Below, one piece after another: positions 8,530 to 56,359 of a stretch of 64,000 nucleotides of DNA (positions within the stretch are counted from its first letter, which is position 1; each line of letters opens with the position of its first letter). Origin of the DNA: a virus. Where the stretch lies: positions 129,019 to 193,018 of the IMG/VR virus record IMGVR_UViG_3300017991_000003; one strand, 5' to 3'. Both the position numbers and the translations under genes were made by a program. Below the pieces are notes generated by a model. The model was given only the letters and a program-made list of their open reading frames with translations, ran no database searches and had not been told where the DNA came from.

Positions 8530-8533
8530 CCCC

Positions 8534-15306: not shown

Positions 15307-15711
15307 GTGGATCTGGGGGTCGTTCAGGTCTCTGATCAAGTCCTGACCCCGGGCCTGGGGGACGCTCCGGTCCGGGTGTCAGGTCTTCGTGCCCTCGTAC
15401 AGCAGGCGGTCATCGAGCTCATCTCGAACCCCCTGCCGGAGCGAGGGCGCGGGGCTGGGCTAGCTCAGCTCGTTGCAGCCCTGCCTCCCCAGAACCAGGC
15501 ACAAGCTCGTGGCACCTTTGCGCAGGCCGTGAGCTCCGCCAAGACGCACATCTTGGCCAACCAGCGCTACGCTTCCAACCTCACCGCGAACGAGCGGCTG
15601 CAAGACATGACCCTGCTTCGGGCCGAGCTCAATGGGCTCGTCTGGGAGATCGACATCAGGATCACCAACGTAGCCGGCGAGTCCGCCACCTTTGCCCTGC
15701 CGGTCAGCTGA
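15307..15711 (+). CDS. hypothetical protein (134 aa)
   Basis: GTG start 4 nt after upstream stop; 1-nt overlap with the next gene. Confidence 0.45.
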   Translation: MDLGVVQVSDQVLTPGLGDAPVRVSGLRALVQQAVIELISNPLPERGRGAGLAQLVAALPPQNQAQARGTFAQAVSSAKTHILANQRYASNLTANERLQDMTLLRAELNGLVWEIDIRITNVAGESATFALPVS

Positions 15712-31941: not shown

Positions 31942-34029
31942 TTGTCAACATTCCTATACGACCTTCTAGGCATGGTTCCTGGCCGACTCGGTGTCTATAA
32001 TCCGTTGAGCCTGCGCACCTTAGACCCGGAGCACGCAAACAAGATGGCGGCCGAAACTCCGAATAGGTTCAGTGTCCCAGTTGAGACGCTGATCCTTCAA
32101 CTGCTCGAGGAGCAGCACCCTCAACTACATGTCGCCCCCGGGTCGGCTACCTATGACACCCTCGTCACCCCGATGGCGTTGGTGCTTCAGCCGTTCCGCG
32201 ACTACCTGCGCGTGATTCAGAGGAACCAGAGCCTCAAGAACGCGCAGACCATGCTGCCCGAGGAGCTGGACCGCCTGGCCAGTAACTTCCTGGTCGACCG
32301 TCGCCAAGGTACCAAGGCACTCGGGGTTCAGCGGGTGCTTTTCCCCACGCTCCAGCAGGTGTCCGTGCCGGCTTCCGCGCGCTTCACGGACGACAACGGC
32401 AACAGGTACCAGCCGGTGACCTCGGTTCAGGTGAGCACCACCACCTTGGCTAATAACGTGGTGGCTGCTACCGGGGAGTACTACGTGGATGTCCCGGTCA
32501 TCGCTGAGCAGCCTGGGGAGGGCAGCGCCGCCCTCGCCGGGGCTGTGACCCAGTTCAGCGGTATTCCCGGAGCGGCACGTACGTTCAACGCGTCTGACTA
32601 CTTCCAGGGCTCGGCTGGCGAGAGCAACAGCCAGCTCGTGGCCCGCATCAAGAGCAGTGTGGCTAACCGAGAGCTGGTCAAGGCCGCCTCGATCGAAGCC
32701 CTCCTGCTTGAGACTTTCCCCAGCATCAGGGACCTGGCTGTCCGGGGCTATGGGGATAGTCTGATGACCCGCGATACGGTGGATGTGGTCCTGGCCAGCC
32801 ACAAGCTGTTCGAGCAGAGCTTTGCCCAGAAGGTGAACCTACCTCTGGACTCTGAGGGCGAGGTTCAGTGGATCACGGACGCTGGAGAGGAGATCACGGC
32901 CCCCATCGGCGGGTTCGTGGGCGCTGTCTACGACCTGACGGGTAAGGACTTCAACGCCCTCAACGTCACCTTGGACGGCCAGATCTACGAGGTCGTGAGT
33001 GCCCAGCCGGGCAACAAGCTCCGCTTCCTGAACTCGGACGACCCCGACGCGGTCAACAACGATTACCGCATCACCCGCGTCGAGGAGGTGCCTGTGGCCC
33101 CCGGCGGGGACGCTGTGAAGGTCTTGCGGCTCGATCGAGCGCTCTCTGATACCGCTGAGGTCGACGTCTCCACCAATCTCGACAGCGTGCCGTATACCGT
33201 GATCGGCCGGTTCAATACCAGCCGCTTCCATGTGGGCGGTAAGGTGGATGTCTACGTGGACTCCACAGCTGATATCGAGCAGACGGTCACGGTCAGCAAC
33301 CTACCCGCGGTCAACGACCAGACCCTGGATGTGGGCGAGATCCCGCTGACTCAGAGCTTCATCAACGACAACGGCGCCAACCTTTTCGAAGGTAACACAG
33401 GCTTTACAGCTCCGGTAATCGCTGTGACCAAGGTCGAGCAGCTGGATCCCACCAACAGCAGCGTAGTGATTCGGGAGCTCACCCCTGACGTCCACTACGT
33501 CCAGGTCACCGCAGCGAGCCGCGGCCGCTTCACGCAGGCCACCAACGACGTACTGGTCATCCGAGGTACCGAGGTTGACCCAGTCACCGGCGAGGAGGTC
33601 CCTCTCTTCGTGGGGCAGCGGCTCAAGGTCACCTACATCACCAACCCGGACATTCCTTTGATTCAGGACTTCGTAGATGCCTCGGATCAGAGGGACTTGA
33701 CCAAGGACATTCAGATCCTCACGCCGACCGTGGTGCTCTTGAATCTGGATCTTGAGTACGCAGGTACCTTGCCTGTGGGTGATGTTCAGACGATCATCAG
33801 GGAGTACATCGAATCCAAGGGCCTCGGCGCCTCGGTCTCGGTGAACGAGATCGTCACGGTCCTCTCTTACTTCGGGGTTACGGACGTCACCATGCCGGTA
33901 CGCCTACGCAGCCGACAGGCCACAGGAAGCGGCTCCTTCACTTTCAACGAGAGCGAGGATCGCCTCTCCGTCGACAGCAACTCGGTGTTCGTGCCTGACT
34001 CGGGCCTGAACATCACCAAGGTCGGGTAA
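31942..34029 (+). CDS. structural protein (695 aa), possibly baseplate or tail component
   Basis: Complete ORF at the head of the long rightward structural operon; beta-rich composition; no specific motif verified. Confidence 0.5.
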   Translation: MSTFLYDLLGMVPGRLGVYNPLSLRTLDPEHANKMAAETPNRFSVPVETLILQLLEEQHPQLHVAPGSATYDTLVTPMALVLQPFRDYLRVIQRNQSLKNAQTMLPEELDRLASNFLVDRRQGTKALGVQRVLFPTLQQVSVPASARFTDDNGNRYQPVTSVQVSTTTLANNVVAATGEYYVDVPVIAEQPGEGSAALAGAVTQFSGIPGAARTFNASDYFQGSAGESNSQLVARIKSSVANRELVKAASIEALLLETFPSIRDLAVRGYGDSLMTRDTVDVVLASHKLFEQSFAQKVNLPLDSEGEVQWITDAGEEITAPIGGFVGAVYDLTGKDFNALNVTLDGQIYEVVSAQPGNKLRFLNSDDPDAVNNDYRITRVEEVPVAPGGDAVKVLRLDRALSDTAEVDVSTNLDSVPYTVIGRFNTSRFHVGGKVDVYVDSTADIEQTVTVSNLPAVNDQTLDVGEIPLTQSFINDNGANLFEGNTGFTAPVIAVTKVEQLDPTNSSVVIRELTPDVHYVQVTAASRGRFTQATNDVLVIRGTEVDPVTGEEVPLFVGQRLKVTYITNPDIPLIQDFVDASDQRDLTKDIQILTPTVVLLNLDLEYAGTLPVGDVQTIIREYIESKGLGASVSVNEIVTVLSYFGVTDVTMPVRLRSRQATGSGSFTFNESEDRLSVDSNSVFVPDSGLNITKVG

Positions 34030-40000: not shown

Positions 40001-43000
40001 TGTACGGTACGGACTTCCTGGACACCTCGTTCGTGGTCTACTCGAACTGGGGCGGTACTCCGAGCCCCTATCCGTCGACGCTGACCTACGTGAGCCCGGG
40101 TGAGGTGCAGTTCACGCCTCCCCAGGAGATCCTGGACAGCTACCCGAACACGCTGACGCTCTCGGTCCACAACCCCGGGCCTGGTGGCGGCTCTACGGGT
40201 GAGCTCCCGCTTACGATCGGCAGCCCCGGCGTACCGAGCCCGGTTGTCCCGAGCCCCGTGGCCGACTTGCTGCTGTTCACGGCCCCGCCTAGCCTGCCCA
40301 TCACCCCGCGCGTGGGTGAGAACACGCTGATTGGCGGTTATGCGGCGGACTCCACGCTGTCTCTGGCGCTGGATGTGGACGCTACGGGCGCCGTGACGGT
40401 CAGCCCGAGCGCCCAGCCGGCGGGTTCGAGCATCGGCGGCACCCTGACCCAGTCCCTGGGCGCCTCGATCCCCGGTTACGTGTTCTTCCCGAACCTAACC
40501 TTTGATACCGCAGGCACTTACACGCTCAACCTGGTCCACGAGAGCCCCGCGGTCATCGCCCAGACGCCGTTGGCGCTCAACCTGAGCGTCCTGAACCCGG
40601 TCCCGACGCTCACTAGCATCGACCCGGACAACATCGACCAGGGTGCGCAGACCCTGACGCTACGGGCGCTGGGCTCGAACTTCGTGAGCGGTGACTCCAG
40701 CATCTACTGGAACGGTCTCCAGCGGACCACGACCTATGTGAGCCCAGGTGAGCTACGTACTACGCTGACCGCGGCGGACTTCCTGGTGCCCCAGGTGGTG
40801 GGTGTGAAGGTCAACACGGCCCAAGGCGGTGGTGACTCGAGCACGATCCCCTTCACCATCAACGGCGCGCCTGGCTCTGGCCTCACTGAGGAGGACCTGA
40901 GCCCCACGATCATCGTCCTGAGCCCCTCGGCGTACCAGCGGGTGCTGCCCACGCAGGGTCCTGTGATCACTACCGAGGAAGGTGTGTCCCTGCACCGGGC
41001 CTTGGAGCAGACTGGCCTCGCTACGGCAGGCACTCCTATCCACGCCTACGACGGATCGGTGGGCGCTATCGAGGTCGTCGAGGTCCGAGCCGGTGCCTAC
41101 AAGGCGATGGCCACCGGTGACGACGTCTTCAAGAGCGACAAGAACCGCAACGTGGCGGTCCCGCACGCGCCTGATTCCGACCACCCGCTCATCATCCGAG
41201 CGGCCAAGTGGTCCGCGGCTCGTGCCCCTGAGCCGGACATGGTGGGTGATCCTGAGCCGTACGTGCTCGTGGCCCGTTTCCCTGACTTCGGTAGCGAGGA
41301 CGTGATCTTCCACGACCGGTCGCTCGAGAGCAGTCATTGGCACTGGTACGACCCGATCCTGTTCCTGGGTAGCCGGGGCGGGATGCTGATCGCCGACAAC
41401 AAGATCTACGGCGCCAACGACCCCACCATCCCGTGGCTGGGCTGGCACATGTACCGGCCGAAGGTCCTGGGCCGCTACGACCACCGGGTGTACCGCCTGG
41501 ATTCGGATCGCTGGATCGTGGGCCCGGGCCCTGACACAGCCTCGATCACCCAGTACGACACCACGGGCGTCGAGATCAGCCCCAAGTCCTGGGACCTCGA
41601 TGACCTGCACCGGGCTCGCTTCGGCAAGCGCCTGACCAGCTCCAACGGCATCACGTCGGGCTTCGCTTCGCTGACCTCGGTGCCTGCGGGCCAGATCACG
41701 GCCACCCACGTGGGCGTGTTCGGCAACGATGCGGACACGCTCTACCGCGTGGGCGTGGCTAGCACGGCCGGCGGCCTGATCCAGACCGATCTGGGTCTCC
41801 TGAGCGTCTTCTCGTCTGATGCGGCCCTGACGACTAGCGACTTCATCGCCTCGGCGCCCTTCGATCCCATCACGAGCCCCAACCAGTACGCCAGCCCTCC
41901 GTCCCTGAGCTACAGCATGGACGTGACCTGGCAGTCCAGCAGTACGTTTGATGCTGTGCCCGGGGCCGGGGGTACGATCCAGTTCTACGACCGCAAGGAT
42001 GACGAGACCCTGTCGCCCAGCACGCTGCTCACCGCGGGCGGTACGGTCAACGTGCCCCTCGAGCAGGGCATCGGCGCCGCTTTCATGGCCTTCACGGGCC
42101 GTGGCTGCTACGTCCTCAAGACCACGGTCAAGGACGAGTGGGGCAACCCGGTCCCCGACCCGGAGGACCCGGATAAAGATCTGACTCGGAACAGCATTAT
42201 CCAGGTCACGAACCACGGGATGAGCGACAGCCCGACGAGCCTGGAGGTGGTCTATGACCTGCCTGATCAGGAGATGCTGTGGTTCTCCAACATCACCTGG
42301 GCCGCAGGGCAGAACATCGGCTTCATGGGCCCGTTCAGCCTGCTGCTGGAGGCGCGCACGAGCTCGGGCGCCCTCTCGATGGAGGTGGACGGTACGGTCC
42401 AGGTTCTGATCGACAGCTTCGAGACCGTGGAGGGCACCGCCATCGGCACGCCCTTCCTCTCCTCGAACGAGATCACGCACATCATGCGCGGCGGGGTCTG
42501 CCACATCCGGGACCTGCACCCCTACATCACGAGCATCAACCCCGAGTCCTTCCAGGCGTTCCTGGATCAGAACTCGGCCTCCAACTACGCGATCCTCACC
42601 CTCACCCTCACGCCGTTCGGCACGGGCACGGGGCTAGACAGCCAATCTACTACTTACCAGATCGGCGTGTGGCCTCCGGGGGCCCAGCGCGGTGAGAGCC
42701 CGGGCTCGATCCCTGTGCCCTTCTCGGTCTATCCGTGGGGCGCGCGTCTGACGGACAAGGAGTGGCTAGGCCCGAACCTCAACGAGTTCGCGCTCACTCT
42801 GGCGCCCTCGGACACGATCCAGGGCATGGAGAGTGGTGCACCGGTCAACGCCAAGGTCAAGACGGCTATCGGCCTGCCCTTCTGGGCCGGCTGGCCGGGC
42901 TCGCCTGGGCACCCCAACTACCGCCCGGGTTACGAGAACATCTGGCCCAAGCCCGAGCACACGCCTGGGCTCGAGTACATCGGCTACCCGACCTTCGACG

Positions 43001-46634: not shown

Positions 46635-48976
46635 TGTCCCAGTCGATCTCCACTGCCTATCACGCGCTCGACACGTCGAGGCTCCAGAACACGCGCTTCG
46701 ATGGCGTGGTGCAGCCCGGGGTCTATGAGGGCTACAGAGCGCGCGCCAACTCGGGCCAACAGAACCTGATCGACCTCACGACCGGAGACGATGACGCGAG
46801 CGTCCTTGTTACCTCCGAAGGTGTGCGCGTTGAGGAGAGCGCTACGGTCTTTGCCGCGGTCCAGGTCGATTCGGCCGATCCGAGCCTGACCCGCATCGAT
46901 CTGCTCGTGGCTGAGTACCAGTACACGACGGACACGACGCAGACGCAGACCTACAAGCTCATCAAGGGCAAGAACCAGACGAACCTGAGCGCTGACCCCG
47001 TGCGCCCCACGGTGGAGAGTGACTATCAGGTGGCCCTGGCTTGGATCACGGTCCGTCCCCAGAAGAGCACTGGCGGGGCCATCCAGGCGAAGATCGAGAA
47101 CACCGACATCATCCACGTCCCCAAGGCGGCGTGGGCAGAGGCTCCTTCGGAGCTGTCGGGCCTCAAGCCGGAGATCGATCCCAACGACGCGCGCCGGCTC
47201 TTCGTCCATCAGGGTGTGATGCCCAACGTGGACGGCACCCGGGTCATCCAGTTCCTGGGCGGCTACAGCGACGTCATCGACCCGGACACCCTCGATAACC
47301 TCCAGGAGTACTGGTACACGTTCGGCGTCGATGATCAAGGCGATGTGGAGGTCATCGGCTCGGCGGCCACCCAAGCGGCTCTGCCTGACCTCACCAACAG
47401 CAGCCTGCCTGTGGCTCAGGTGCGGGCGCAGAAGATCGGTGGCCAGATCCAGCTCCAAGAGCTGGTGGACATTCGCTTCTCGTTCAGCCGTCAACTGGCC
47501 CAGGACCAGGAGGGCTACAACTACCGGGACCTTCTGGCCAACTCCGTCTTCCGGTACCTGCGGGTCGACACGTTCACGGACGACTCGCTGCTTGATCTCG
47601 ACTCCGTGGAGCTAGCCACAACTGAAGATGCTAGTGACCTCACGGCTGAGATTGATAGCAGCGACACCAGCCTGACCGTCACGTGGTCAGGAACGACGTC
47701 GGTGCCGTCCGAAGAGGTGGCTATCGTCACCACGAACCTGCTCTCCGGCACTGCGATCTCCAAGATCGAGCACTTCATGCTTGCCGTGGAGGCCGGCTTC
47801 GAGAACCTCGAGTTCCGCTACAGCACGAGCTCGGCTACGAGCGGGTTCAGCACTACGCGGCACAGCCCCGGCGAGATCGTCCGCATCCCGTTCAACGGCG
47901 CGACCAAGCTCTACATCAAGTTCCTGATCCCCGTCTCGGGGTTCAGCTCGGGCGAGGCCAAGATCTTCAGCTACGGCGCCCTGATCAACTTGAGTGGTGG
48001 CGCTGTCAACGCGACGACCCTGGGTGACCTAGGTCTCCTGGCTTTCCCCTACTCGGTCAACAACCTGGTGGCCAACGGCAGCTTCTACTACTGGAGCCGG
48101 CCGCTGTCCGACGGGACCGAGCCTGACCTGACCAGCCAGGATGAGCAGAGCTTCGCGCTCAGCTCCGAAGACGACTATCCGCTGGTGGCCGACGGCTGGC
48201 AGATGACCAAGTTCCCGACCCCTGTGGCCGGTGAGGTGGTCAAGCGCATCATTCGGGACCAGGGCGATAACACCGCTGCTACGGCGATCGAGATCACGAC
48301 CTCGGCCGCTGACGAGGCTGGCGCGGTCAACGTCATGGAGTACCGGATCCCGGTGGGCGCGGAGATGCAGGGGCAGTACCTGACCCTAGCCGCGGCCTTC
48401 GAGACCACGACGCCCCAGTCCCTTGCTGTGGGGCTCGCCATGTACCGGCGCACCTCCAGCGGCCTGACGCTCAAGGAGAAGGACGAGACCTACGCCAAGA
48501 CAACCAGCGGCGAGATCTACGTGCGCTCCAGCTCTGCCATCGGCCCCGACGTGGACCAGATCAGCGTCTACGTGCTCATGATCGCCAGCACGGCCGAGGT
48601 CACGCATAGGCTCTGGGATGTGCGCACGGCGGCTGGTGAGTTCTCGAGCCTCCCGATGCTCAAGGTGGTCGATGCCCCTGACGTCCTGCGCCAGTACTAC
48701 GAGCGTGGGCGCATCTACACGGCGCAGAACGTCACCGAGAACGTCCAGGTAGGCGCCGCGACCCAGTTCGGGGCCACCAAAGCCGAGAGCCTCGGCACCC
48801 TGGTGGGGCGCACGGTGCCTGTGAGTAGCGCCAACCGCTCGACCAACGTCGGCGACCTCATCTACTCGGCGGATCGTCACGGTCTGCTCATCACCGCAAC
48901 CTCGAGCTCTTCGGGCGTGTCCACTGTGGACGCTGATTGGGAGAGCTTCGTCAAGTTCGAGTCCAGCGTCCTATGA
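46634..48976 (+). CDS. tail-fibre-like structural protein (780 aa)
   Basis: ATG at 46634 overlapping upstream TAA (TAATG); large beta-rich protein. Confidence 0.55.
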   Translation: MSQSISTAYHALDTSRLQNTRFDGVVQPGVYEGYRARANSGQQNLIDLTTGDDDASVLVTSEGVRVEESATVFAAVQVDSADPSLTRIDLLVAEYQYTTDTTQTQTYKLIKGKNQTNLSADPVRPTVESDYQVALAWITVRPQKSTGGAIQAKIENTDIIHVPKAAWAEAPSELSGLKPEIDPNDARRLFVHQGVMPNVDGTRVIQFLGGYSDVIDPDTLDNLQEYWYTFGVDDQGDVEVIGSAATQAALPDLTNSSLPVAQVRAQKIGGQIQLQELVDIRFSFSRQLAQDQEGYNYRDLLANSVFRYLRVDTFTDDSLLDLDSVELATTEDASDLTAEIDSSDTSLTVTWSGTTSVPSEEVAIVTTNLLSGTAISKIEHFMLAVEAGFENLEFRYSTSSATSGFSTTRHSPGEIVRIPFNGATKLYIKFLIPVSGFSSGEAKIFSYGALINLSGGAVNATTLGDLGLLAFPYSVNNLVANGSFYYWSRPLSDGTEPDLTSQDEQSFALSSEDDYPLVADGWQMTKFPTPVAGEVVKRIIRDQGDNTAATAIEITTSAADEAGAVNVMEYRIPVGAEMQGQYLTLAAAFETTTPQSLAVGLAMYRRTSSGLTLKEKDETYAKTTSGEIYVRSSSAIGPDVDQISVYVLMIASTAEVTHRLWDVRTAAGEFSSLPMLKVVDAPDVLRQYYERGRIYTAQNVTENVQVGAATQFGATKAESLGTLVGRTVPVSSANRSTNVGDLIYSADRHGLLITATSSSSGVSTVDADWESFVKFESSVL

Positions 48977-49608
48977 GCCAGGTTCAGCCAGTTCGCAGCG
49001 GTACTGTCGTACTAAGCGGCGTCTTCGAGAAGATCACCACGGAGGGTGACAGCTCGAACTTCCTAGGCTCCAACGCGGGCCTCAGCCAACTTTTCCGTGC
49101 CACTGAGGACACTGGGAGCTCGGTCGACCACAGCTACGGCGTGCTGGTCACCGATGTTGACTCGGTTACGGACGGGTATGGCAACACCCTCTACACCTAC
49201 GACTTCACGCTGGACTTCAACTACTTGGTTGGTGCCAAGCAGCTGATCGTGCAGCTCAAGACCACGCCTACGGCCACCCAACCGGTCGCAGGCTTTGTGA
49301 CGCTCCCCTCCAAGGAGCTGATCGACACGGACCCCGCAGCCAATGCTTGGGATCCCTACTACGAGGAGATCGACTCGACCACCGTGCGGGTTCACAACAT
49401 CCTCGACTCGCGCATCATCCTTGCGCTGATTCCGCACACGGCCATCCCGGCTACCAACAAAGAGAAGATCACGGTCCAGAATCAAGGCAACAACGAGGCT
49501 ATCGAGCTCGAGGGTGCTGGTGACGGCGTGATCTTCCGAACGCCTAACGGGAGCCGCTGGTTGTTCCGAATCGATGATTCTGGAACCACTGCCATCGTGC
49601 CCCGGTAA
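48973..49608 (+). CDS. hypothetical structural protein (211 aa)
   Basis: ATG at 48973 (ATGA overlap), MSQVQPVRSGTVVL... Confidence 0.5.
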   Translation: MSQVQPVRSGTVVLSGVFEKITTEGDSSNFLGSNAGLSQLFRATEDTGSSVDHSYGVLVTDVDSVTDGYGNTLYTYDFTLDFNYLVGAKQLIVQLKTTPTATQPVAGFVTLPSKELIDTDPAANAWDPYYEEIDSTTVRVHNILDSRIILALIPHTAIPATNKEKITVQNQGNNEAIELEGAGDGVIFRTPNGSRWLFRIDDSGTTAIVPR

Positions 49609-49611
49609 GTC

Positions 49612-50328
49612 ATGTGCGACGTCATCGCCCCTCTTGGAGTCAGCCTGTTCTTGATGACGGCTGCTTTCATCTATGCTGTTTTTCAGAACAAGAAACTACG
49701 GCAGGCTCCAAGGTGCATATTCCCCTCGTCGGCCTGCCCGCATGACGGTCACAAGAACAAGGTGATGCGTGAGAAGGCCGTGGCCTTCGAGGCCGCTTTC
49801 AACAACGCGGCACACGGCATGGCGGTCGTCGACATCGACGGGAGCTGGGTACGCGTGAACGATGCCCTTATCGACATGCTTGGGTACACGCGAGAGGAGC
49901 TCGTGTCCGGGATGACGTTCCAAGACGTCACGCATCCGGACGATCTCGACAAAGACCTGAAGCTGATGCAAAAGCTCCAGGACGGTCATATTCGGAAGTA
50001 TCACCTGGCCAAGAGGTACATCCGCAAGGACGCTCACGTGATCTACATCATGCTGTCCGTCAGCCTGATCCGTAACCTGAGTGATCATCCGCTGTTCTAT
50101 GTCTCGCAGATTATCGAGCGCACCGCAGACCAGGTGGAGCTCGATCGACTGCGGGAAGAGGCCCGCCGGTGGCGTTCTGAGGCGCTTTTGTGGGAGCAGC
50201 GCCTAGAGTCTACCCGGCAGCGCCATAACGAGGCGTTGGATCGGCTGATCCAGCCCTCGAGTGCTCCCTCCGTCGAAGAGCCGAGCACGTCTCAGCCGTC
50301 CACTAAGCCGCACCAGGATCATGACTAA
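49612..50328 (+). CDS. membrane-anchored PAS-domain protein with C-terminal coiled coil (238 aa)
   Basis: N-terminal hydrophobic helix (APLGVSLFLMTAAFIYAVF); PAS-like core FEAAFNNAAHGMAVVDIDGSWVRVNDALIDMLGYTREELVSGMTFQDVTHPDD...KDAHVIYIMLSVSLI...FYVSQIIERT; 5' region looks lower in GC than neighbours by eye. Confidence 0.6.
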   Translation: MCDVIAPLGVSLFLMTAAFIYAVFQNKKLRQAPRCIFPSSACPHDGHKNKVMREKAVAFEAAFNNAAHGMAVVDIDGSWVRVNDALIDMLGYTREELVSGMTFQDVTHPDDLDKDLKLMQKLQDGHIRKYHLAKRYIRKDAHVIYIMLSVSLIRNLSDHPLFYVSQIIERTADQVELDRLREEARRWRSEALLWEQRLESTRQRHNEALDRLIQPSSAPSVEEPSTSQPSTKPHQDHD

Positions 50329-50743
50329 CGAACCGGCCTCAAGACAACAAGTGGATACGCTGATCAAAGCTGTAGAGGGGCTCGCAGCCAAGGTAGACGC
50401 AAATACCGTGGCCATCGCCGAGCGTGGTTCGGACTTCCGAGCTATGAAGGCGGAGCTTGAGCGTGTGCGCCAGCAGGTGCATGACACCCATCAGTACATC
50501 CACACAGGCAATGGTCGTGAGGCCTTGTCGACGCGGATGCTTGTGGCGGAGCGTGAGTTGGCCGAGCTTGTGGCCAAGGCGCTAGCCAGGGAGCAGCTGG
50601 AGGCTGAGGAGCGCCTCACCAAGGACGCGGAGGCCCGGGCCTACGCCCGCAGCATCCGAATCGCCATCTTGACGAGTGCTGCGGCCCTACTAGGGGTGGG
50701 GATCAACATCGTGTACTTGATGGCGTCCGGGGGCGCGTCGTGA
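50321..50743 (+). CDS. coiled-coil protein with C-terminal transmembrane anchor (140 aa)
   Basis: ATG at 50321 (8-nt overlap with the PAS gene); heptad-like Ala/Glu/Arg-rich region; C-terminal IRIAILTSAAALLGVGINIVYLMASGG. Topology resembles XhlA-type phage membrane proteins, unverified. Confidence 0.45.
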   Translation: MTNEPASRQQVDTLIKAVEGLAAKVDANTVAIAERGSDFRAMKAELERVRQQVHDTHQYIHTGNGREALSTRMLVAERELAELVAKALAREQLEAEERLTKDAEARAYARSIRIAILTSAAALLGVGINIVYLMASGGAS

Positions 50744-51063
50744 TTGAGCACCTGCTAGCTGGCCTACTCGATGGACTCGAGAAGGAGGCCGGCCGTGCGC
50801 CGCGTGCTCCTGAGTACAAGGTCCTCGATAAACATCGAGTTGCCTTGACGCCTGGCGAGCGCGCCTACGTCATGGACAACAAGGCCGTCTGGCACCGCGC
50901 GTGGAAGAACGGCAAGCAGGTGCCCAGTCCTGCTGTCTGGAAGGCTGTCATGCCCGACGGTAAGGTTTGGTACGTGACCAACACGCATCGGGTTATGAAC
51001 GCGCGCCCCACGGTGCGTGGGGCTGTTAGCCGCTACCACAAGTTCATCAAGACCACGGCATGA
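50740..51063 (+). CDS. hypothetical protein (107 aa)
   Basis: GTG start overlapping upstream TGA; Trp/Lys-containing small protein. Confidence 0.4.
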   Translation: MIEHLLAGLLDGLEKEAGRAPRAPEYKVLDKHRVALTPGERAYVMDNKAVWHRAWKNGKQVPSPAVWKAVMPDGKVWYVTNTHRVMNARPTVRGAVSRYHKFIKTTA

Positions 51064-52142
51064 GCCAGCGCTTCGCCACCACCCACCAGGCGGTCAACCT
51101 CCTGCGTAACGGGAGCCTCGAGATGGTCGAGGCCCTGGACAGCGGTGCGCAGAAGCCCCATTTCTGGTCATTCGACGCCCTGATCCACGAGGCGCTTCAA
51201 GATGCGGTCGTGGTAAACACCTTCGAGGTCCTTCAGGAGGATCCTGGACCGGCCCCGGCTAGCCGGTTTCGTGTGGAGCTTGTCACGGGCGAGCCCTCCA
51301 AGCTCTATCAGGACACGACCCGGGACGCCTCGGTCCACGTCCAGGATTTCCCGGTCCCGCTAGCGCCGTCGTTGAAGCCGGCGCTGCCGCAGGGCCACTT
51401 TTCTACCGAGGTCCACGCCCTCCCCAAGGGGGATTACACGCTCTCCTTCGATGTTCGGGCCTACCAAGGCACCGTGTCGATCGATCCAGCTGCTTGGGAC
51501 CTCGTCGGAGCGGTGCAGACGCCGACCTACCCCACTGGCCAGACTTCCGTGACACTGGGAGCTAGTGCCATCTGGCGCCGGATCACCATCCAGTTCTCGG
51601 TCGACTACGCCCTGGGCGGTGTCGGGCTCCAACTAGAGCGCACAACGTCCTCCGGTCTGGCTGTGGTAGAGATCGGCAACGTCATGTTGGCTCAGGGGCA
51701 CTACCGCTACCTTCCGTACACCGGCGACCCGCTCCTCTCGGCCATCCCCAAGGGGGCGATCATCCTCACCATGGGGTCTGTGTGCCCTCCTGGCTTCGAG
51801 GAGATCGGCGAGGATGGTCTTGAGCCTCTGCCTGAGTGGGTGGCTGATGAGCCCAACATCCTGGCACGCAAGGGTAACTACCCGCGCGAGGGCACGGAGC
51901 TAGTGGGAACGACCTCGCATACTGTGGATGCTGTCGAGATCACTCCGGGCACCACGGATGCGCTCGAGTTCTCCGGTCCCGACAGCAAGGTGGTTGATGG
52001 GACTCTCGTCGACACCTCCAAATCCAATCCGGCGACGGACGAGCCCGGCGGGTCTCAGGGCGTCCCGGAGCATGATCACACGATTGAGACGGCAGGTACG
52101 CGGCCGGTGAGCCGCGGCTACCTCCTTTGCCGGCGCATCTGA
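51060..52142 (+). CDS. tail-fibre/receptor-binding-like protein (360 aa), member of a three-gene paralog set
   Basis: N-terminal NLLRNGSLEMVEA; C-terminal AIILTMGSVCPPGFEEIG followed by PEHDHTIE and an ending GYLLCRRI, shared in pattern with 52142..56359 and 56363..57481. Confidence 0.55.
   Translation: MSQRFATTHQAVNLLRNGSLEMVEALDSGAQKPHFWSFDALIHEALQDAVVVNTFEVLQEDPGPAPASRFRVELVTGEPSKLYQDTTRDASVHVQDFPVPLAPSLKPALPQGHFSTEVHALPKGDYTLSFDVRAYQGTVSIDPAAWDLVGAVQTPTYPTGQTSVTLGASAIWRRITIQFSVDYALGGVGLQLERTTSSGLAVVEIGNVMLAQGHYRYLPYTGDPLLSAIPKGAIILTMGSVCPPGFEEIGEDGLEPLPEWVADEPNILARKGNYPREGTELVGTTSHTVDAVEITPGTTDALEFSGPDSKVVDGTLVDTSKSNPATDEPGGSQGVPEHDHTIETAGTRPVSRGYLLCRRI
51549..51570 (+). repeat. inverted-repeat element copy D (degenerate, GTGACACTGG-gag-CTAGTGCCA) inside a CDS
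   Basis: In frame within gene 51060..52142, encoding SVTLGASAI; same phase as copy A. Confidence 0.4.
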
Positions 52143-55100
52143 TGGAAGTGAACACCCTCAACCAGCGCAACGCGCTGAACCTCCTGCGTAACGGCTCCTT
52201 CTCGCAAGGAGTCGCGCACTGGTGGGGGAGCTATCTACGCCACAAGCGCAGCTCCGGAGGCCAGACGCTGGGCTCCAATGCTCCTGAGTATGCTCTGGAG
52301 GTCTTCCAGGCCCAGGACACGAGCTATCCAGACTCGGTGACGCCCGGGGCGCATCAGTGGGTGGATCGCCCGGATCTATTCACCTATCCCAGCCAGCGGC
52401 TGGTGAGCGGCCTGCGCCTCATTCCTTTTACGGATGATCGAGCGCTGCTCCAGGTCGTGCCGGAGCTGACGGCGATGGATGGGGTCGTCCTCGCTGAGCC
52501 GGACGCTGCGGAGATCCCGACCTACTCCGATATCTTCCAGCACCCGTTCGTGCACCTGGAGCCGGATGGGACGCGTGTGAACATCGAGGCGGGTTCGGTC
52601 CTGCCTCTCACGGATACCCGGCGCCCGGAGTCGAGCGGCCTGTACCGTGTGGGCTCCTTCCTGGAGAACCGGAATGGAACCGGTGTGGCGTCGGACTATG
52701 ACCCGTCCAACTACCACGAGTACACCTACCACGGCCTGGAGATCAATCCGCTGAGCGGAGGCTCGTACAAGGCTCTGATGACCCACGAGACGAGCGGCGT
52801 GGTCACGGCCGCCATCACCGCGGAGGCGTCGGGCCTGTACACCGTGGTGACGATCTCGGTCGACAAGGACGTGGTGCGCGGCTTGGATCGCGAGCAGCCT
52901 GGGTACACCCCGGAGCTTGGCTTGGCGGTCGGTGATGTGTTCACCATGACCGAGCCGGTGCTGCGCTCGGGCGTGATCACTCAGGTGGCGATCTCGGACG
53001 ACCAGACGGTCGTGACGCTCATCCCACTCGCTAACTATGGCGACTACGTGGTCACCCCGTTCGTGGAGGACGTGACCCCGGAGGCCTGGTCGATCTACGC
53101 CACGTCGGTCGCTACGGTGCGGCGCACCATGCCGCTGTACGCCTACGACTTCACCCTGGGCTACACCTGCCGGATCAACGACGGCTACTCAGCCCCGGCC
53201 GAGACCTCGATGGTGGCCCGGACTCTTTCGGGCACGGGGACTCTTGTGGGCACAGGCACGGTCGGCGCTGAGATCCCGCGCATCGGCGGCAAGCGCAAGA
53301 TCGTCAACCTCCTAATCGACGAGGACACGGTCGACGGGGCGTGGCAACGCCGGCTCGAACGTCACTTCCGGGAGGCCTCGGCTCCGCTGGAGGGGCGTAT
53401 CGACCTCTCGGTCCTGCCCCCGGCCGGCTCCGAAGACAGCTACCCCACTCCAACCAGCAAGCTGCCTGACTCGGTCTACTGGTACTTCTTCACGGACCTG
53501 GATGGGGAACTTCCGAACCTCAACGATCCGCCGGAGTCGATCGAGGACACGCCGCACTTCCAGATCAACATCCCGGTCGACGAGAACAACCTGCCTCCGG
53601 CTGAGTGGCTGGCCGGCAACAAGGAGTTCACGGTCACGCCCTTCGGCGACACGTCCGAGCTCGAGGAGCAGTTCTCCTGGATCATTCCGCTGCTGCTCGT
53701 TCCTAGCTTCACGGCGCAGGCAGCGCTGCTAGAGGTCCCCGACGAGACCTATCCGGCTCTGCTGAAGCTCTACGTCGCCTGGGATACCGACGAGTTCGGC
53801 GCCTTCCCTAGCGTGGATGGCTTCAACATCGGCTGGAACAGCACAGTGACGGCTACCTGGGGCTTCAACGTCAAGGGTCTGAACGGCTCTGGTGCGCGCG
53901 CTCTGGTCTCGGACGTCTTCATGACCCACGGGGATCAGGCGCAGCGGCTCGAGAAGCTCGATGACACGGCCCTGCCTGTCACAGGCCCGCTCACCGATGA
54001 TGTCTCGATCGATCCCCTGCGCCACGGGGTCGATCTCTTGGAGAACGTGATCCCGCCCGGGGCGGTGGTCCTCTACGCCGGCGGCGGTACCTGCCCTCCG
54101 GGCTTCAAGCGAGTGGAGAGCTTCCCCGACGCCGCTGTAGCGGGAATCGGCTCGGACGCTGATCTGACCCTCACTGACGCAACCGTCGTCTACGACACGG
54201 CCCGTGATCGGACCAAGATCACCTGGACGGGTCGGGAGTTCCCGCTCTATGACGATGACGGGGGTGTGATCCCGATCCCTGAGCTCGCTCTCTCGGTCAG
54301 CAAGCCGATTCCAGGCATCCCGGACTCTCTCCAGGAGGTCAAGTTCACGCCGAGCCAGCAGGTGGTACAGCCGGGCATGGCGGTTCGTGTCCCTGAGTTC
54401 CTCATGGACTCGACGATCACCGAGACCGACCCGCTGTTCTCTTCGGAGACCCTCGGCAAGGCCATGCGCGCTGTAGGTGGCTGGGCGCAGCTGCATCGCC
54501 CCGAGGAGCCACTATTCAGCCGACTCGGTGTCGAGCTGTGGTTCCAGACCCAGAGCAGCATCACGACTTCTGGCGATGAGCGCCTGTCGTGGATCTTCCG
54601 CCAGGCCAAGAAGGTCGGCGATGATGTGATCAGCTGGGGCCTTCTGTACGTCACGTCTGGCACGGACGGGGGCAAGCTCGAGTGGCGTGTCGAGACGGTC
54701 GGCTCCCTGGGTGCCCGCACAGACGTCTATCGCATGACCACGGCGGCCCTTCCGGTTAGCGGATTCGCCGGTGACTGGATGCACATCATCGTGGAGTTCA
54801 GCGCGCCCAACTCCGGTACGGTCGGCGAGCCGGGCCAGGGCGTGACCCCTGATGTGCGCATCACCTTCAGCGATACGGAGGACTCCTACGGCACGCTGAT
54901 CGAGAGCCACAACTTCGGCGTGGTACAGGCAGGGGCTGATCTGGCCAAGGGCGCCGTGCTGCGGCTAGGCCACACCCCCGAGGTAGATGGCGCGCTGGGG
55001 ACGAGCTCCTATACCGACCCGGTGACCGGGAACCTGATCACCCTGGCCGCCAAGCACATCGACAACTTCCGCGTCTTCGATCTCTCTAGTCAGGAGATGA

Positions 55101-56359
55101 CCGAGTCGGAGCGTGTGGCTCTGTGGAATAGCGGGAAGGGTCTGGCCCTGGCACCGGCCGAGCTCCAGAGTCGTCTTGTCACCGAGGTGCGCTTCGATGA
55201 GGGCTACGGCTCCACGGCTGTGGACTCGGCCCCGGTCAACTGGACAGAGCCCGTCCAGCTGCAAGGCGCCGCCTCGTGGACTACGGGTCACGTGCTGGCC
55301 TTGGGCGGCTCAGACTTCGGGACGGACGACTACCGCGCGCCCTTCGAGGACAAGGCGCGTAGCTACCTCGTCACCAAGGTCGAGTCGATTCTGGTCGAGG
55401 CCGAGGGCGCCTTCGCCAGCGGCATCCCCTACAACCCCTCGGCCAACCCGGTTGGTAACGGGCTCGGGGACGTGCTGTACCCCTTCTCGGTGTCTGAAGA
55501 CGATCTGATGGAGGGGGATAAGACCATCATGCCGCTCGGCCCGGGCCTCACAGGCCAGTCGGCCACCTTCGATGGTGGGGCGGTGCTTTCTGGGCAGTTC
55601 TGGAACGGCACGTCGAGCGGAGGGCTGTTCTCGACGATCACGATGCGGAACTTCGGATCGCAGCCGTCAGATTGGAACCCGCAGGTGGGCGACGTCTACT
55701 TCCTCCAGTGGGAGAGCTCAGACAACCCCGGCCTGGCCCTCGGATGGTTCCCGGCACGTCTGACCGACATCACGATCGAGACGGGTATCCCGGTGTACCG
55801 CTACTACACCTTCCAGCGGTATGACGGGCGCAAGATCCAGCTGACCCCGGCCGAGTACCAGCAGCTCAGTTACGAGGACGCGTTGTCCGGGGACAAGGGC
55901 ACGATCACGGTCCGCCCGGTCAAGCTCTTTGGCGACGGGGAGCAGGTTGTGGCATCGGAGACCGGTGCCATCACTCCGCAGGCTGTGACCATCTCGGAGA
56001 CCTTCTACAACTCGACGCGCTACTGGGTGGTACGCCGGCTGAGCAACAACCTCGAGCTCGAGGTCAAGGGCGACCTATCCATCCCCACCGGTCAGACTGA
56101 GATCCATGTCGAGGCCACGGGCTATCTGCGCTACGATGATCCTGAGGACAAGATGGACTACGGCGCAGGCGGACACAGTCACCGGGTGGGTGGCGCTCTC
56201 ACGGCTACCGACGATTTGATCCCCAGGATCTCCGAGACCGGTTCCCTGGCGTCCGAGCCCTATCAGGCTGTGGCGCAGGATCACGACCATGGGTTCCAGA
56301 GCGTCTTCCGGTTCCCGCTGCCCAAGTTCCGCCTATTCACGGCCTGCCAGAAGCTCTAG
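52142..56359 (+). CDS. giant tail-fibre/adhesin-like protein (1405 aa) with LamG-like signature
   Basis: ATG at 52142 (TGATG overlap). N-terminal NLLRNGSFSQGVAHWW; LamG_3-like signature (HIDNFRVFDLSSQEMTESERVALWNSG); C-terminal VVLYAGGGTCPPGFKRV, GGHSHRV, QDHDHGF, ending FTACQKL. Confidence 0.6.
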   Translation: MEVNTLNQRNALNLLRNGSFSQGVAHWWGSYLRHKRSSGGQTLGSNAPEYALEVFQAQDTSYPDSVTPGAHQWVDRPDLFTYPSQRLVSGLRLIPFTDDRALLQVVPELTAMDGVVLAEPDAAEIPTYSDIFQHPFVHLEPDGTRVNIEAGSVLPLTDTRRPESSGLYRVGSFLENRNGTGVASDYDPSNYHEYTYHGLEINPLSGGSYKALMTHETSGVVTAAITAEASGLYTVVTISVDKDVVRGLDREQPGYTPELGLAVGDVFTMTEPVLRSGVITQVAISDDQTVVTLIPLANYGDYVVTPFVEDVTPEAWSIYATSVATVRRTMPLYAYDFTLGYTCRINDGYSAPAETSMVARTLSGTGTLVGTGTVGAEIPRIGGKRKIVNLLIDEDTVDGAWQRRLERHFREASAPLEGRIDLSVLPPAGSEDSYPTPTSKLPDSVYWYFFTDLDGELPNLNDPPESIEDTPHFQINIPVDENNLPPAEWLAGNKEFTVTPFGDTSELEEQFSWIIPLLLVPSFTAQAALLEVPDETYPALLKLYVAWDTDEFGAFPSVDGFNIGWNSTVTATWGFNVKGLNGSGARALVSDVFMTHGDQAQRLEKLDDTALPVTGPLTDDVSIDPLRHGVDLLENVIPPGAVVLYAGGGTCPPGFKRVESFPDAAVAGIGSDADLTLTDATVVYDTARDRTKITWTGREFPLYDDDGGVIPIPELALSVSKPIPGIPDSLQEVKFTPSQQVVQPGMAVRVPEFLMDSTITETDPLFSSETLGKAMRAVGGWAQLHRPEEPLFSRLGVELWFQTQSSITTSGDERLSWIFRQAKKVGDDVISWGLLYVTSGTDGGKLEWRVETVGSLGARTDVYRMTTAALPVSGFAGDWMHIIVEFSAPNSGTVGEPGQGVTPDVRITFSDTEDSYGTLIESHNFGVVQAGADLAKGAVLRLGHTPEVDGALGTSSYTDPVTGNLITLAAKHIDNFRVFDLSSQEMTESERVALWNSGKGLALAPAELQSRLVTEVRFDEGYGSTAVDSAPVNWTEPVQLQGAASWTTGHVLALGGSDFGTDDYRAPFEDKARSYLVTKVESILVEAEGAFASGIPYNPSANPVGNGLGDVLYPFSVSEDDLMEGDKTIMPLGPGLTGQSATFDGGAVLSGQFWNGTSSGGLFSTITMRNFGSQPSDWNPQVGDVYFLQWESSDNPGLALGWFPARLTDITIETGIPVYRYYTFQRYDGRKIQLTPAEYQQLSYEDALSGDKGTITVRPVKLFGDGEQVVASETGAITPQAVTISETFYNSTRYWVVRRLSNNLELEVKGDLSIPTGQTEIHVEATGYLRYDDPEDKMDYGAGGHSHRVGGALTATDDLIPRISETGSLASEPYQAVAQDHDHGFQSVFRFPLPKFRLFTACQKL

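Follow-up and report, generated by a model that had tools for sequence, protein, structure and literature searches.

Few sensory domains have been described from phages. VqmA, a soluble transcription factor of the PAS-HTH type which binds the autoinducer DPO, is encoded by a temperate plasmid-like phage within its regulatory region. The VqmA-Phage protein of vibriophage VP882, the one PAS example studied in depth and described in one account as a phage-encoded PAS receptor timing lysis (PMC8284805), showed that phages can follow host signals for the lysis decision. The phage PAS protein analysed here (P0001) has the PAS fold in common with VqmA. It lacks, however, a DNA-binding domain, is membrane-anchored and is encoded in a presumably late structural operon. 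Its architecture, a membrane PAS protein without output domain accompanied by a small membrane partner (P0016), is unusual for a phage, and its function we infer. Both genes lie in the window, that is the whole stretch of 64,000 nt that was analysed.

The short LOV/PAS proteins (PpSB1/PpSB2-LOV, W619_1-LOV and Meiothermus MrLOVe) are built in a similar way, as they likewise consist of an N-cap, a PAS core and a J-alpha helix without an effector. Short LOV structures (PDB 5luv, 7a6p and 9vf7) are the best Foldseek matches of the phage protein with E about 7e-9 and target TM-scores of 0.71-0.85, and the phmmer match to 5luv extends over core and helix alike. The sequence identity to the short LOV proteins is, however, only 18-22%, and the phage protein adds a membrane anchor, a cysteine-containing linker and a dedicated membrane partner. 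The LOV motif GXNCRFLQ with the photoactive cysteine (NCRFLQ) is absent: DCRFLQ of 5luv aligns to GMTFQD, which contains neither the cysteine nor the arginine, and the orthologue from a second phage lineage (L003) reads GGMTFQD. Since the adduct-forming cysteine motif is absent, the protein is not a LOV domain and its identity as a LOV photoreceptor is ruled out. Judged from these alignments the signal is not blue light perceived via a LOV cysteine.

By sequence the closest relatives are cellular PAS domains located directly upstream of HisKA, HisKA_3 or LuxR-type modules. These kinase-proximal PAS_3/'S-box' domains (e.g. P0004-P0009) are 47-53% identical over the core and have FQDVTHPDD and KRYIRKDG in common with the phage protein. 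The latter, however, stops after the linker helix without DHp H-box, HATPase_c or HTH. It carries a one-residue insertion (SGM/GGM), E-KRY...W has become A/P-KRY...Y/H, and an N-terminal TM anchor like that of the phage protein was not seen in 21 bacterial relatives examined. There are 95,315 relatives; among the matches listed only residues ~50-190 align, and in a representative search residues 1-49 and 190-238 were unique. The PAS gene thus appears to derive from bacterial sensor proteins, of which it copies the kinase-proximal PAS domain together with the signalling helix. Because the core is 38-54% identical to bacterial sensor proteins from at least ten phyla, neither a donor nor a target or host can be named.

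Viral proteins with the PAS fold exist as well. In BFVD there are 23 viral matches at E ≤ 1e-3, some of them short 'PAS domain' proteins of uncultured Caudovirales such as A0A6J5KZZ3 (169 aa) and A0A345MNJ9 (182 aa), and the histidine kinases of phages and giant viruses, e.g. of Agrobacterium phage Atu_ph07, also have this fold. The viral structure matches have E values of 8e-10 to 1.5e-8 (TM-score 0.60/0.82 for A0A6J5KZZ3), and at 15-17% identity the comparison with the BFVD proteins is one of fold alone. A tblastn search of 50,697 phage records with the PAS protein and with the baseplate, 780-aa, 360-aa and 1405-aa proteins of the window gave no match, and a motif-seeded scan of IMG/VR returned one further contig with the PAS gene. 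The claim that such domains are rare in phages therefore holds for the sequence searches but has to be softened in view of the BFVD matches.

Two further groups are related by architecture. Aer-type receptors are membrane-anchored and use a cytoplasmic PAS domain to report the redox or energy state of the cell. The phage protein resembles them in its membrane anchoring and in its predicted cytoplasmic PAS domain. Aer, however, comprises an N-terminal FAD-PAS domain, a membrane hairpin, a HAMP domain and an MCP signalling domain, and such outputs are absent from the phage protein. The T4 holin T, the antiholins RI/RIII and the class II holins are late bitopic membrane proteins whose soluble part is of considerable size and whose genes come directly after tail-fibre genes, and the T4 proteins T, RI and RIII regulate lysis timing via their soluble domains. 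The T4 holin gene t follows the tail-fibre genes 37/38, and the T7 holin gene 17.5 follows the fibre gene 17. In contrast to this, the phage pair has no sequence or profile similarity to these proteins and no linked endolysin, and the soluble domain is predicted to be cytoplasmic in the PAS protein whereas it is periplasmic in T.

The PAS protein and its membrane partner

Table 1. Coordinates of the gene pair, its sequence features and the borders of the slot within the window.
Feature	Position	Strand	Basis
P0001, membrane-anchored effector-less PAS protein, 238 aa	49612..50328	+	ORF, ATG start
N-terminal TM anchor of P0001, about residues 5-25, predicted N-out/C-in	49624..49686	+	Kyte-Doolittle, charge, AlphaFold
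Juxtamembrane Cys motif P-R-C-x-[FY]-P-x-S-x(0-1)-C, residues 32-42	49708..49737	+	Orthologue alignment
N-cap (A'-alpha) helix, residues 44-65	49741..49806	+	AlphaFold; aligns with short LOV N-cap helices
PAS core, residues 66-170	49807..50121	+	Pfam PAS/PAS_3/PAS_9; five modelled strands
Long C-terminal (J-alpha-like) helix, residues 171-213	50122..50250	+	AlphaFold pLDDT 93-97
Pro/Ser/Thr-rich tail, residues 214-238	50251..50325	+	pLDDT 51-58; non-conserved
P0016, tail-anchored helical membrane protein, 140 aa	50321..50743	+	ORF; ATGACTAA overlap with PAS gene
C-terminal TM anchor of P0016, residues 112-139	50654..50737	+	Kyte-Doolittle mean 1.99
Invariant Y-I-H-T-G-N-G-R-E loop of P0016, residues 59-67	50495..50521	+	Alignment of two partner orthologues
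Upstream slot border, conserved 211-aa all-beta structural gene	48973..49608	+	
Downstream slot border, conserved 107-aa soluble gene	50740..51063	+	Four closest lineages
Outer downstream border, 360-aa fibre-like gene	51060..52142	+	All lineages

The original prediction described a single-pass membrane protein with a PAS core and a C-terminal coiled coil, followed by a tail-anchored membrane protein. Its reading frame, start codon and length agree with our analysis, and on two other contigs independent gene callers placed start and stop identically. From the N- to the C-terminus the protein consists of a TM anchor, a cysteine-containing linker, an N-cap helix, the PAS core and a long J-alpha helix. 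AlphaFold models the whole protein with a pLDDT of 83 and residues 50-213 with a pLDDT above 93.

The single membrane pass is supported by one Kyte-Doolittle segment within residues 1-25 (19-residue mean 2.04) and by a helix modelled at residues 9-30. The L003 orthologue has a hydrophobic N-terminus in the equivalent place, although the anchor is only 27% identical. Four Lys/Arg residues lie on the C-terminal flank of the segment and none on the N-terminal flank, which predicts a cytoplasmic location of the PAS domain. According to one statement in the literature (PMC4822843), a Pfam-type PAS domain also points to an intracellular location. The juxtamembrane cysteine motif is kept in both phage orthologues within a poorly conserved linker. 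A soluble isoform initiated at Met52 is unlikely, because the orthologue has no internal Met ahead of the PAS domain and the gene starts 2-3 nt past the upstream stop codon in both lineages.

P0001 is a genuine member of the PAS fold superfamily. Residues 59-167 score above the gathering cut-off with PF00989 (42.4 bits, cut-off 22.6) and PAS_9 (37.9, cut-off 27), and further matches above the cut-off are PAS_3 (37.8, cut-off 25.6) and PAS_8 (27.8, cut-off 21.8). The modelled strands (residues 69-73, 78-82, 129-137, 143-154 and 160-169) are flanked by helices. Foldseek with the model gave 632 matches in the PDB (E ≤ 1e-3); the best among the matches listed are all PAS/LOV domains. The claimed coiled coil fared less well. 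There is a single long helix with the conserved pattern RWRS..A..WE.R.E..R.RH...LD.L, and crude a/d scoring flags residues 171-204 as coiled coil, but the 3.5-residue periodicity of this helix is not significant (z ≤ 1.3).

Neither kinase, DNA-binding, holin, spanin nor defence signatures were found in P0001, and HisKA, HisKA_3 and HATPase_c gave no Pfam match at E ≤ 1. The protein ends about 25 residues past the linker helix, where the DHp domain of its homologues starts. A truncated or mis-called histidine kinase is ruled out by the conserved stop codon, the equally short length in two lineages and the unrelated downstream gene. Haem-binding PAS domains of the FixL/DosP type have a proximal histidine on the F-alpha helix, and the sequence alignment revealed no conserved candidate for it: H126 is the only histidine near the F-alpha helix and is an alanine in the orthologue; H108 is part of THPDD, a general PAS_3 motif. 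As P0001 shows no signature of a cofactor or ligand, its PAS domain may serve for dimerisation alone.

The partner is indeed tail-anchored, with a TM segment that ends one residue ahead of the C-terminus and has a positive N-flank. The protein is at most a putative coiled coil, with one window at z = 4.1 in the periodicity test, and the N-terminus (MTNEPASRQQ) contains neither a signal peptide nor a lipobox cysteine. L003 has a 50% identical orthologue in the equivalent position; beyond this lineage no homologue was found among 5.8 billion proteins. P0016 is thus predicted to be a lineage-specific tail-anchored protein with a cytoplasmic soluble part. The pair does not look like a two-component spanin, as both soluble domains are predicted to be cytoplasmic and P0016 has no signal peptide or lipobox. 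Gene order and the overlapping stop and start codons are identical in both lineages, and the comparison shows a conserved pairing and, judged from these overlaps, translational coupling of the two genes.

The slot in the structural module

The source is an uncultured tailed phage of ~190 kb which belongs to a deep-branching family without cultured members. A megablast search with 7 kb gave no match in the 50,697 phage records, and sequence and profile searches of the PDB with the flanking proteins gave nothing. The setting within a structural module, as originally described, is supported by a match to the baseplate wedge family phrog_6 at 31942..34029 (E = 1.4e-17) and by a weak tail-fibre PHROG match of the 360-aa gene (E = 0.0046). 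In the alignment of its orthologues the latter has invariant LPYTGDP, CPPGF and HxH motifs.

Seven related lineages were compared at this junction. The cassette is present in the window and in the contigs L003-L008, which are clonal. In the L003 lineage the PAS protein is 51% and the partner 50% identical, and the flanking genes are 55-79% identical; the two cassette genes thus evolve equally fast, and faster than their surroundings. The identity of the PAS orthologues amounts to 59% in the core and 51% in the J-alpha helix, with 8-35% elsewhere (8% in the tail, residues 214-238). The two phage proteins are reciprocal best matches with 160 bits, compared to 109-119 bits for the best bacterial match, and they probably have a single origin and are under constraint.

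Other relatives share the flanks but carry different genes or none at the junction, and the cassette is accordingly accessory. In L010/L011 the slot is occupied by a protein of ~114 aa with two TM segments and a charged C-tail, resembling a class II holin in these features, whose reading frame has a coding-like GC3. The occupant in L012 is 156 aa long and has one TM segment plus a coiled coil, L014 and L015 contain unrelated soluble genes, and the junction of L013 is empty. The slot is not tied to one function, because in more distant relatives it is empty or filled with soluble genes. The 107-aa border gene is 69% identical in L003 and present in L010/L011 and L012 but absent from L013. Within the structural half of the window the PAS protein and P0016 are the only clear small membrane proteins.

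A low local GC content had been noted, and this is correct. With a GC content of 0.582 the PAS gene is fourth from the bottom among 59 genes. The GC content falls to 0.55 at two 300-nt minima, which are within the lowest 0.2% of windows. The dip is set by codon positions 1 and 2 (GC2 = 0.372). In contrast, GC3 is ordinary (0.753, z = -0.47), and in synonymous codon usage the gene takes rank 16 among the 59, which shows that the codon usage of the cassette is native. The L003 orthologue has no dip, as its GC content is 0.606 compared to 0.57-0.58 in the adjoining genes. The PAS gene follows a 3-nt gap, and the downstream overlaps are 8 nt (PAS gene with partner gene) and 4 nt. No promoter or terminator brackets the cassette: Within 14 kb the scan, which covered sigma-70-type consensus sequences only, returned two promoter-like and four terminator-like signals compared to 2.4 and 5.1 expected by chance. 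As there is neither intergenic space nor a promoter or terminator signal above chance, late expression is to be presumed.

The original prediction had been staked on a PAS-family match together with a deviating composition. The first is solid, but GC3 and codon usage are the same as those of the neighbours. The further claim of a horizontally acquired moron is not borne out by the ordinary GC3 and codon usage, the missing promoter and terminator and the strongly diverged orthologue. A recent acquisition is ruled out by the GC3 and codon usage, the syntenic orthologue with 51% identity and the missing dip in L003, and since the orthologues are only ~51% identical the PAS gene is old in the lineage. 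Like a moron, the cassette is variably present between conserved flanks, but it has no promoter and terminator of its own. We conclude that the two genes form an accessory cassette at a hotspot of insertion and are neither a classical nor a recent moron. The hotspot lies within the tail-fibre operon, and hotspots of this kind are sites at which phages exchange accessory functions.

Possible roles of the gene pair

From architecture and position an influence on lysis timing, as had been proposed, is plausible. Our preferred reading is tentative and could easily be wrong: The pair may be a late inner-membrane PAS adaptor with its partner, acting on a late membrane event which is most probably lysis timing. 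Both proteins would be made late alongside the fibres and inserted into the inner membrane. The PAS module would then dimerise via its N-cap and J-alpha helices, as in the short LOV/PAS proteins. A ligand- or redox-dependent change, or the mere accumulation of the protein, could be relayed by the J-alpha helix to the membrane partner. In this way the pair would act on a late step at the membrane, lysis timing in a holin/antiholin-like manner being the most probable one, and not on virion assembly. The membrane theme of the slot, with small membrane proteins also in L010/L011 and L012, is consistent with such an adaptor. If true, this would be a different viral route by which a cytoplasmic cue is coupled to a late membrane event. 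At present the pair is a well-defined candidate and not a discovery.

The search for lysis functions gave little. Pfam and PHROGs revealed no homology to holin, antiholin, spanin or lysis families in the PAS protein, in P0016 or in the other slot occupants, and for the pair no holin family appeared at E ≤ 1 (Pfam) or E ≤ 0.1 (PHROGs). The matches of the pair and the slot occupants to lysis profiles are sub-threshold and at the level of TM segments only, and in BFVD a holin appears for the PAS protein only at E = 0.14. No endolysin, lysozyme, amidase or lysis peptidase was found among the ORFs scanned in the window and 8 kb beyond, the window comprising 64 of ~193 kb. We know of no holin with a single N-out/C-in TM segment and a large cytoplasmic domain. 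A more specific form of the adaptor reading, in which the pair is a sensor-gated lysis clock, a holin/antiholin-like membrane complex whose cytoplasmic PAS domain reads the energy, redox or metabolite state of the infected cell and brings lysis forward or delays it, is decidedly unlikely. It would mean that a lytic phage couples its lysis timing directly, at the protein level, to the physiology of the host, and the membrane proteins in the slot of the other lineages would be interchangeable 'timer' modules.

Alternatively, the PAS module could be a means to jam a host sensor. The kinase-less PAS domain and its helix, anchored in the membrane, would enter dead-end heterodimers with a PAS-containing sensor kinase or a chemoreceptor of the host and silence or hijack a response late in infection. 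P0001 in effect corresponds to the sensory part of a histidine kinase that stops immediately ahead of the DHp H-box, and as it has no output domain it must act via protein-protein contacts; an interaction which tracks the host would agree with how fast the pair evolves. On a public contig the PAS segment is fused in frame to a chemoreceptor (P0180), and if this fusion is real the module is compatible with host receptors; it probably arose, however, as a chimera during assembly, at a shared k-mer that codes for IAAIQQA. We consider such a decoy unlikely. The nearest cellular PAS domains reach no more than 38-54% identity and come from at least ten phyla, expression alongside late structural genes would be an odd timing for a takeover of the host, and the dedicated conserved partner gene is left unexplained. 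Tail-linked membrane protein or lipoprotein genes for exclusion are known from T5 (llp), T1/phi80 (cor) and HK97 (gp15). For P22, SieA is described in one report as an inner-membrane exclusion protein (PMC10883804). The pair is also accessory, fast-evolving, membrane-located and placed in a hotspot beside receptor-binding-type genes, so that an inner-membrane complex which blocks the entry of DNA from rival phages or counters a membrane-associated defence of the host comes to mind, a kind of role that tail-linked accessory genes often have. This is somewhat less likely again. PADLOC-DB gave no match for the PAS proteins and none that is significant overall, the matches of P0016 being weak and of coiled-coil type (JetC, E = 0.0018; SAVED-type, E = 0.0054). 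To our knowledge no exclusion protein contains a PAS domain, and an independent promoter for prophage or early expression is missing.

The remaining explanations do without sensing or without function. That the PAS domain is the dimerisation scaffold of a membrane-associated fibre or baseplate factor would agree with a gene which is embedded among, and translationally coupled to, fibre and baseplate genes and with the lack of a cofactor motif. Such an assembly helper is nonetheless improbable: Close relatives whose flanking structural proteins are 70-76% identical lack the cassette, which is thus dispensable, the PAS core is more conserved than a mere scaffold would need, and we know of no membrane-bound tail-fibre assembly in tailed phages. 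The two genes are the fastest-evolving coding sequences of the block and are missing from relatives, as would be expected for a decaying hitch-hiker without present function. This we regard as highly improbable, because both ORFs are intact in two lineages which are only ~50% identical, the AlphaFold fold is confident, and the conservation follows the domain structure (PAS 59%, tail 8%) with the translational coupling kept.

The PAS protein and its membrane partner

The PAS gene is a genuine open reading frame with an ATG start; in two other assemblies of this phage it was predicted identically by independent gene finders. The HMM search proposed as a check on the original prediction is positive: residues 59-167 match four Pfam families above their gathering scores, namely PAS (42.4 bits versus 22.6), PAS_9 (37.9 versus 27), PAS_3 (37.8 versus 25.6) and PAS_8 (27.8 versus 21.8). 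The AlphaFold2 model (alignment of 15 homologues; mean pLDDT 83, above 93 for residues 50-213) consists of a helix (residues 9-30), a disordered linker, an N-cap helix (44-65), a five-stranded PAS core, a single unbroken J-alpha helix (171-213) and a disordered Pro/Ser-rich tail. The sole hydrophobic membrane segment is N-terminal (mean hydropathy 2.04 over 19 residues). Thus, the observation of a single-pass membrane PAS protein is confirmed. Because Lys/Arg residues are found only on the C-terminal flank of this segment (four versus none on the N-terminal side), the positive-inside rule predicts a cytoplasmic PAS domain. Such a location fits PMC4822843, where Pfam-type PAS domains are in general intracellular and extracytoplasmic sensors are Cache domains. 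The C-terminal coiled coil also claimed holds only in part and is the least secure element of the description. The long helix is modelled confidently and a crude a/d scoring flags residues 171-204, but a permutation test finds no significant 3.5-residue periodicity within residues 171-213. No output domain was found in the protein.

The next gene overlaps the PAS gene by 8 nt (ATGACTAA). Its product has a lone hydrophobic segment at residues 112-139, so that it is predicted to be tail-anchored, as had been proposed, with a cytoplasmic N-terminal domain. For the partner's coiled coil, 3.5-residue periodicity is significant in one window only (permutation test).

The surrounding open reading frames are dense, mostly in one orientation and almost without profile matches; among them are ORFs of 3406, 1405 and 1512 aa. 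The baseplate-wedge match, a weak tail-fibre PHROG match of the 360-aa gene and a relative listed as viral in IMG/VR are evidence for a tailed-phage structural block, and the position among structural genes therefore stands. A lysis enzyme could be recognised neither in the window nor in the 8 kb beyond its right end. A tblastn search of 50,697 deposited phage genomes gave no match to any of the tested proteins, so that cultured members of this phage family are absent from that collection.

A GC dip in the PAS gene had also been read as consistent with a horizontally acquired moron. The GC content of the gene is indeed low (0.582, fourth lowest among 59 genes), and two 300-nt minima of 0.55 belong to the lowest 0.2% of windows. 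The deficit, however, sits at codon position 2 (GC2 = 0.372) and reflects amino-acid composition. Foreign codon statistics are not found: GC3 is 0.753 (z = -0.47) and takes rank 20 of 59, the gene is 16th of 59 in how well its synonymous codons fit those of the other genes, and the orthologous gene of lineage L003 is not GC-poor (0.606 versus 0.57-0.58 for its neighbours). No sigma-70-like promoters or intrinsic terminators were detected above chance across 44-58 kb, and the genes around the cassette are separated by 3-nt gaps or overlap. By composition and transcription signals the gene is thus not a recent or autonomous moron, although it is accessory; the original interpretation is borne out in part.

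Features of the window and of related lineages (window positions unless a lineage is named)
Feature	Position	Strand	Remarks
Two adjacent tRNA-Leu genes	3986-4072 and 4147-4232	-	anticodons TAG and CAA
Group of modification-type genes	7771-11628	+	
Sulfotransferase-like gene	8534-9211	+	phrog_3347
DNA and SAM methyltransferase-like genes	9190-9765, 9765-10271	+	
Family-25 glycosyltransferase	10232-10969	+	'LPS biosynthesis'
355-aa protein	15711-16778	+	DUF5661, E=4.3e-12; directly 5' of a 1262-aa ORF without matches
Baseplate-wedge gene	31942-34029		phrog_6, E=1.4e-17
3406-aa ORF	34036-44256	+	immediately 3' of the baseplate-wedge gene
Imperfect 25-nt direct repeat	49542-49566 and 51104-51128		76% identity
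PAS gene	49612-50328	+	238 aa
Juxtamembrane Cys motif	49708-49737		PAS protein residues 32-42
Partner gene	50321-50743	+	140 aa
Fibre-like paralogues	51060-52142 and 52142-56359	+	
Two-TM slot occupant	L010:13001-13345	+	about 114 aa; identical in L011
Single-TM slot occupant	L012:6676-7146	+	156 aa
Tail-anchored coiled-coil protein	L015:11550-12026	+	158 aa; directly 3' of the fibre-like gene
Phage side of fusion junction	L003:10130-10150		

An old pair at a variable junction

The exact PAS protein is present on a 193-kb contig. In a second lineage (L003-L008) a 217-aa orthologue occupies the same position, and its neighbours on either side follow in the same order. Between the window and L003, protein identity is 75-79% for the 479-aa, 182-aa and 780-aa genes, 63% for the 211-aa gene, 69% for the 107-aa gene and 56-66% for the 360-aa, 1405-aa and 372-aa genes; it is 51% for the PAS protein and 50% for the partner. 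The two PAS orthologues are mutual best matches (160 bits, where the top bacterial sequences reach 109-119 bits) and have a one-residue insertion in common. Their identity varies by domain: 59% in the PAS core, 51% in the J-alpha helix, 35% in the Cys linker, 28% in the N-cap helix, 27% in the TM segment and 8% in the tail. These comparisons show that the pair goes back to a single, old acquisition and evolves under constraint.

The junction has other contents in further lineages, which we order by the identity of their 780-aa protein to that of the window. In L010/L011 (73%) the only coding-like frame within about 400 bp codes for a protein that resembles a class II holin: it has two TM segments and ends in a charged C-tail. 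The one gene at this place in L012 (70%) encodes a product with one TM segment and a coiled coil at its C-terminus. No significant family match was obtained for either occupant. The junction is empty in L013 (48%), where a 218-aa gene adjoins the fibre-like gene, and holds unrelated soluble genes in L014 (39%) and L015 (42%), in the latter including an SNF2 helicase and a pentapeptide-repeat protein. Thus, the PAS/partner pair is dispensable and the junction is an insertion hotspot; in the closest lineages every cargo protein is small and belongs to the inner membrane. Since the 780-aa protein of L010, which lacks the PAS gene, is as near to that of L003 (76%) as is that of the window (75%), the cassette has been lost, replaced or exchanged among close relatives.

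The variable cassette as a whole (the genes for the PAS protein and for 140 and 107 aa) lies between the two copies of the 25-nt repeat (GC(C/G)TAACGGGAGCC...), each of which codes for an N-G-S motif within a flanking structural gene. The repeat may be a chance similarity or a substrate for recombination. The 158-aa protein of L015 has the layout of the partner without sequence similarity, and its TM region reaches a sub-threshold 19.2 bits against Phage_r1t_holin (cut-off 26.9).

Relatives and possible function

The nearest cellular sequences are 47-53% identical over the PAS core. Their PAS domains directly precede HisKA or HisKA_3 kinase cores or LuxR-type HTH domains, and the end of the phage protein coincides with the start of their DHp domain. 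An exhaustive HMMER scan returned 95,315 relatives; among the matches listed, only residues ~50-190 are aligned, so that anchor, Cys linker and distal helix appear unique to the phage proteins in this set. The TM-PAS-helix layout occurs in none of 21 bacterial relatives examined, which are large multidomain or short soluble proteins. A genome scan found PAS domains of 38-54% identity in Bacteroidota, Thermoleophilia/Gaiellales, Planctomycetota, Cyanobacteria, Nitrospirota, Proteobacteria, Verrucomicrobiota, Acidobacteriota, Chloroflexota and Myxococcota; from a similarity spread over these ten groups neither donor nor host can be inferred.

The best structural matches are short LOV/PAS proteins (5luv, 9vf7, 7a6p), which are effector-less and consist of N-cap helix, PAS core and J-alpha helix. 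Next in rank, with 15-25% identity, come PAS domains that bind FAD, haem or ligands. A LOV photoreceptor is ruled out because the LOV motif NCRFLQ aligns to GMTFQD, and the two phage orthologues have no F-alpha helix His in common. Among viruses, tblastn found this PAS subtype in no deposited phage, and a motif-seeded IMG/VR scan gave one contig, a 488-kb element with a full kinase and response regulators. BFVD contains 23 viral proteins with a matching fold (E<=1e-3), including short 'PAS domain' proteins of uncultured Caudovirales (169-205 aa), phage histidine kinases (e.g. of Agrobacterium phage Atu_ph07) and giant-virus kinases. To our knowledge, VqmA of phage VP882 (PMC8284805), a soluble PAS-HTH receptor, is the only functionally studied phage PAS protein. 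The architecture is a new variation on known short PAS proteins and phage-encoded PAS sensors, in a phage family without cultured members.

The function of the PAS protein, possibly sensory, rests entirely on inference. We suggest that it dimerises like short PAS proteins and that the J-alpha helix could signal or bind to the partner at the inner membrane face. The conserved juxtamembrane motif P-R-C-x-[FY]-P-x-S-x-C would in a dimer put four cysteines at this face, a possible metal or redox site. The partner is conserved, translationally coupled and co-evolving with the PAS protein, and the pair lies inside a late-type structural operon without transcription signals of its own. As its output we tentatively favour regulation of a membrane event late in infection, in the first place the timing of lysis, because of predicted late co-expression, membrane location, rapid evolution, the holin-like alternative occupants of the same slot and the order in T4 and T7, where holin genes follow the fibre genes. 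Against lysis control count the topology, atypical for a holin, the non-membrane cargo of the slot in distant relatives and two negative results: no homology to any lysis family and no linked endolysin were found. A text search returned no literature joining 'PAS domain', 'holin' and 'lysis timing'.

It is doubtful that the protein serves as a decoy which heterodimerises with host PAS sensors. Superinfection exclusion or counter-defence finds no support from PADLOC and is less probable, an assembly helper without sensing is quite improbable, and we hardly believe in a decaying passenger.

Further observations

A 748-aa ORF (P0180) on a public 4266-bp contig falls into the 90%-identity cluster of the 217-aa orthologue. 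Here a complete-looking methyl-accepting chemotaxis protein (MCP; residues 1-574) is fused in frame to phage PAS residues 44-217 (...EEIGGQ/IAAIQQAKAF...), with the IAAIQQA-coding stretch in common. Since IAAIQ, a motif widespread in MCPs, is encoded by the phage DNA at the junction (ATCGCCGCGATCCAGCAGGCC) with codons typical of high GC, the most economical reading is that the ORF is probably an assembly chimera at a common k-mer. If real, it would have arisen by recombination between phage and host and would give a hint of the host.

The 3406-aa ORF has no PHROG match and only a sub-threshold TIG/IPT Pfam match; its orthologues in related lineages have 3449 and 4231 aa, and that of L003 is 57% identical over the C-terminal 1560 aa. 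The fibre-like paralogues, with orthologues in L003, L010, L013, L014 and L015, have in common an N-terminal motif NL(L/F)RNG(S/G)(F/L), an internal LPYTGDP...CPPGF block, HxH motifs and a conserved C-terminal end (...F-C-[KR]-[KR]-[ILV]). They have no match in the PDB, in deposited phages or in PHROGs (beyond E=0.005).

Glycosyltransferase family 25 is matched by a second ORF among those scanned, and these enzymes hint at a Gram-negative host. Pfam matches among 26 window ORFs include HTH_3/HTH_31 (E=4.7e-10) and Peptidase_M78 (ImmA/IrrE-like domain, E=2.3e-4), a combination typical of a repressor/anti-repressor switch; the phage may therefore be temperate or carry a stress-responsive regulator.
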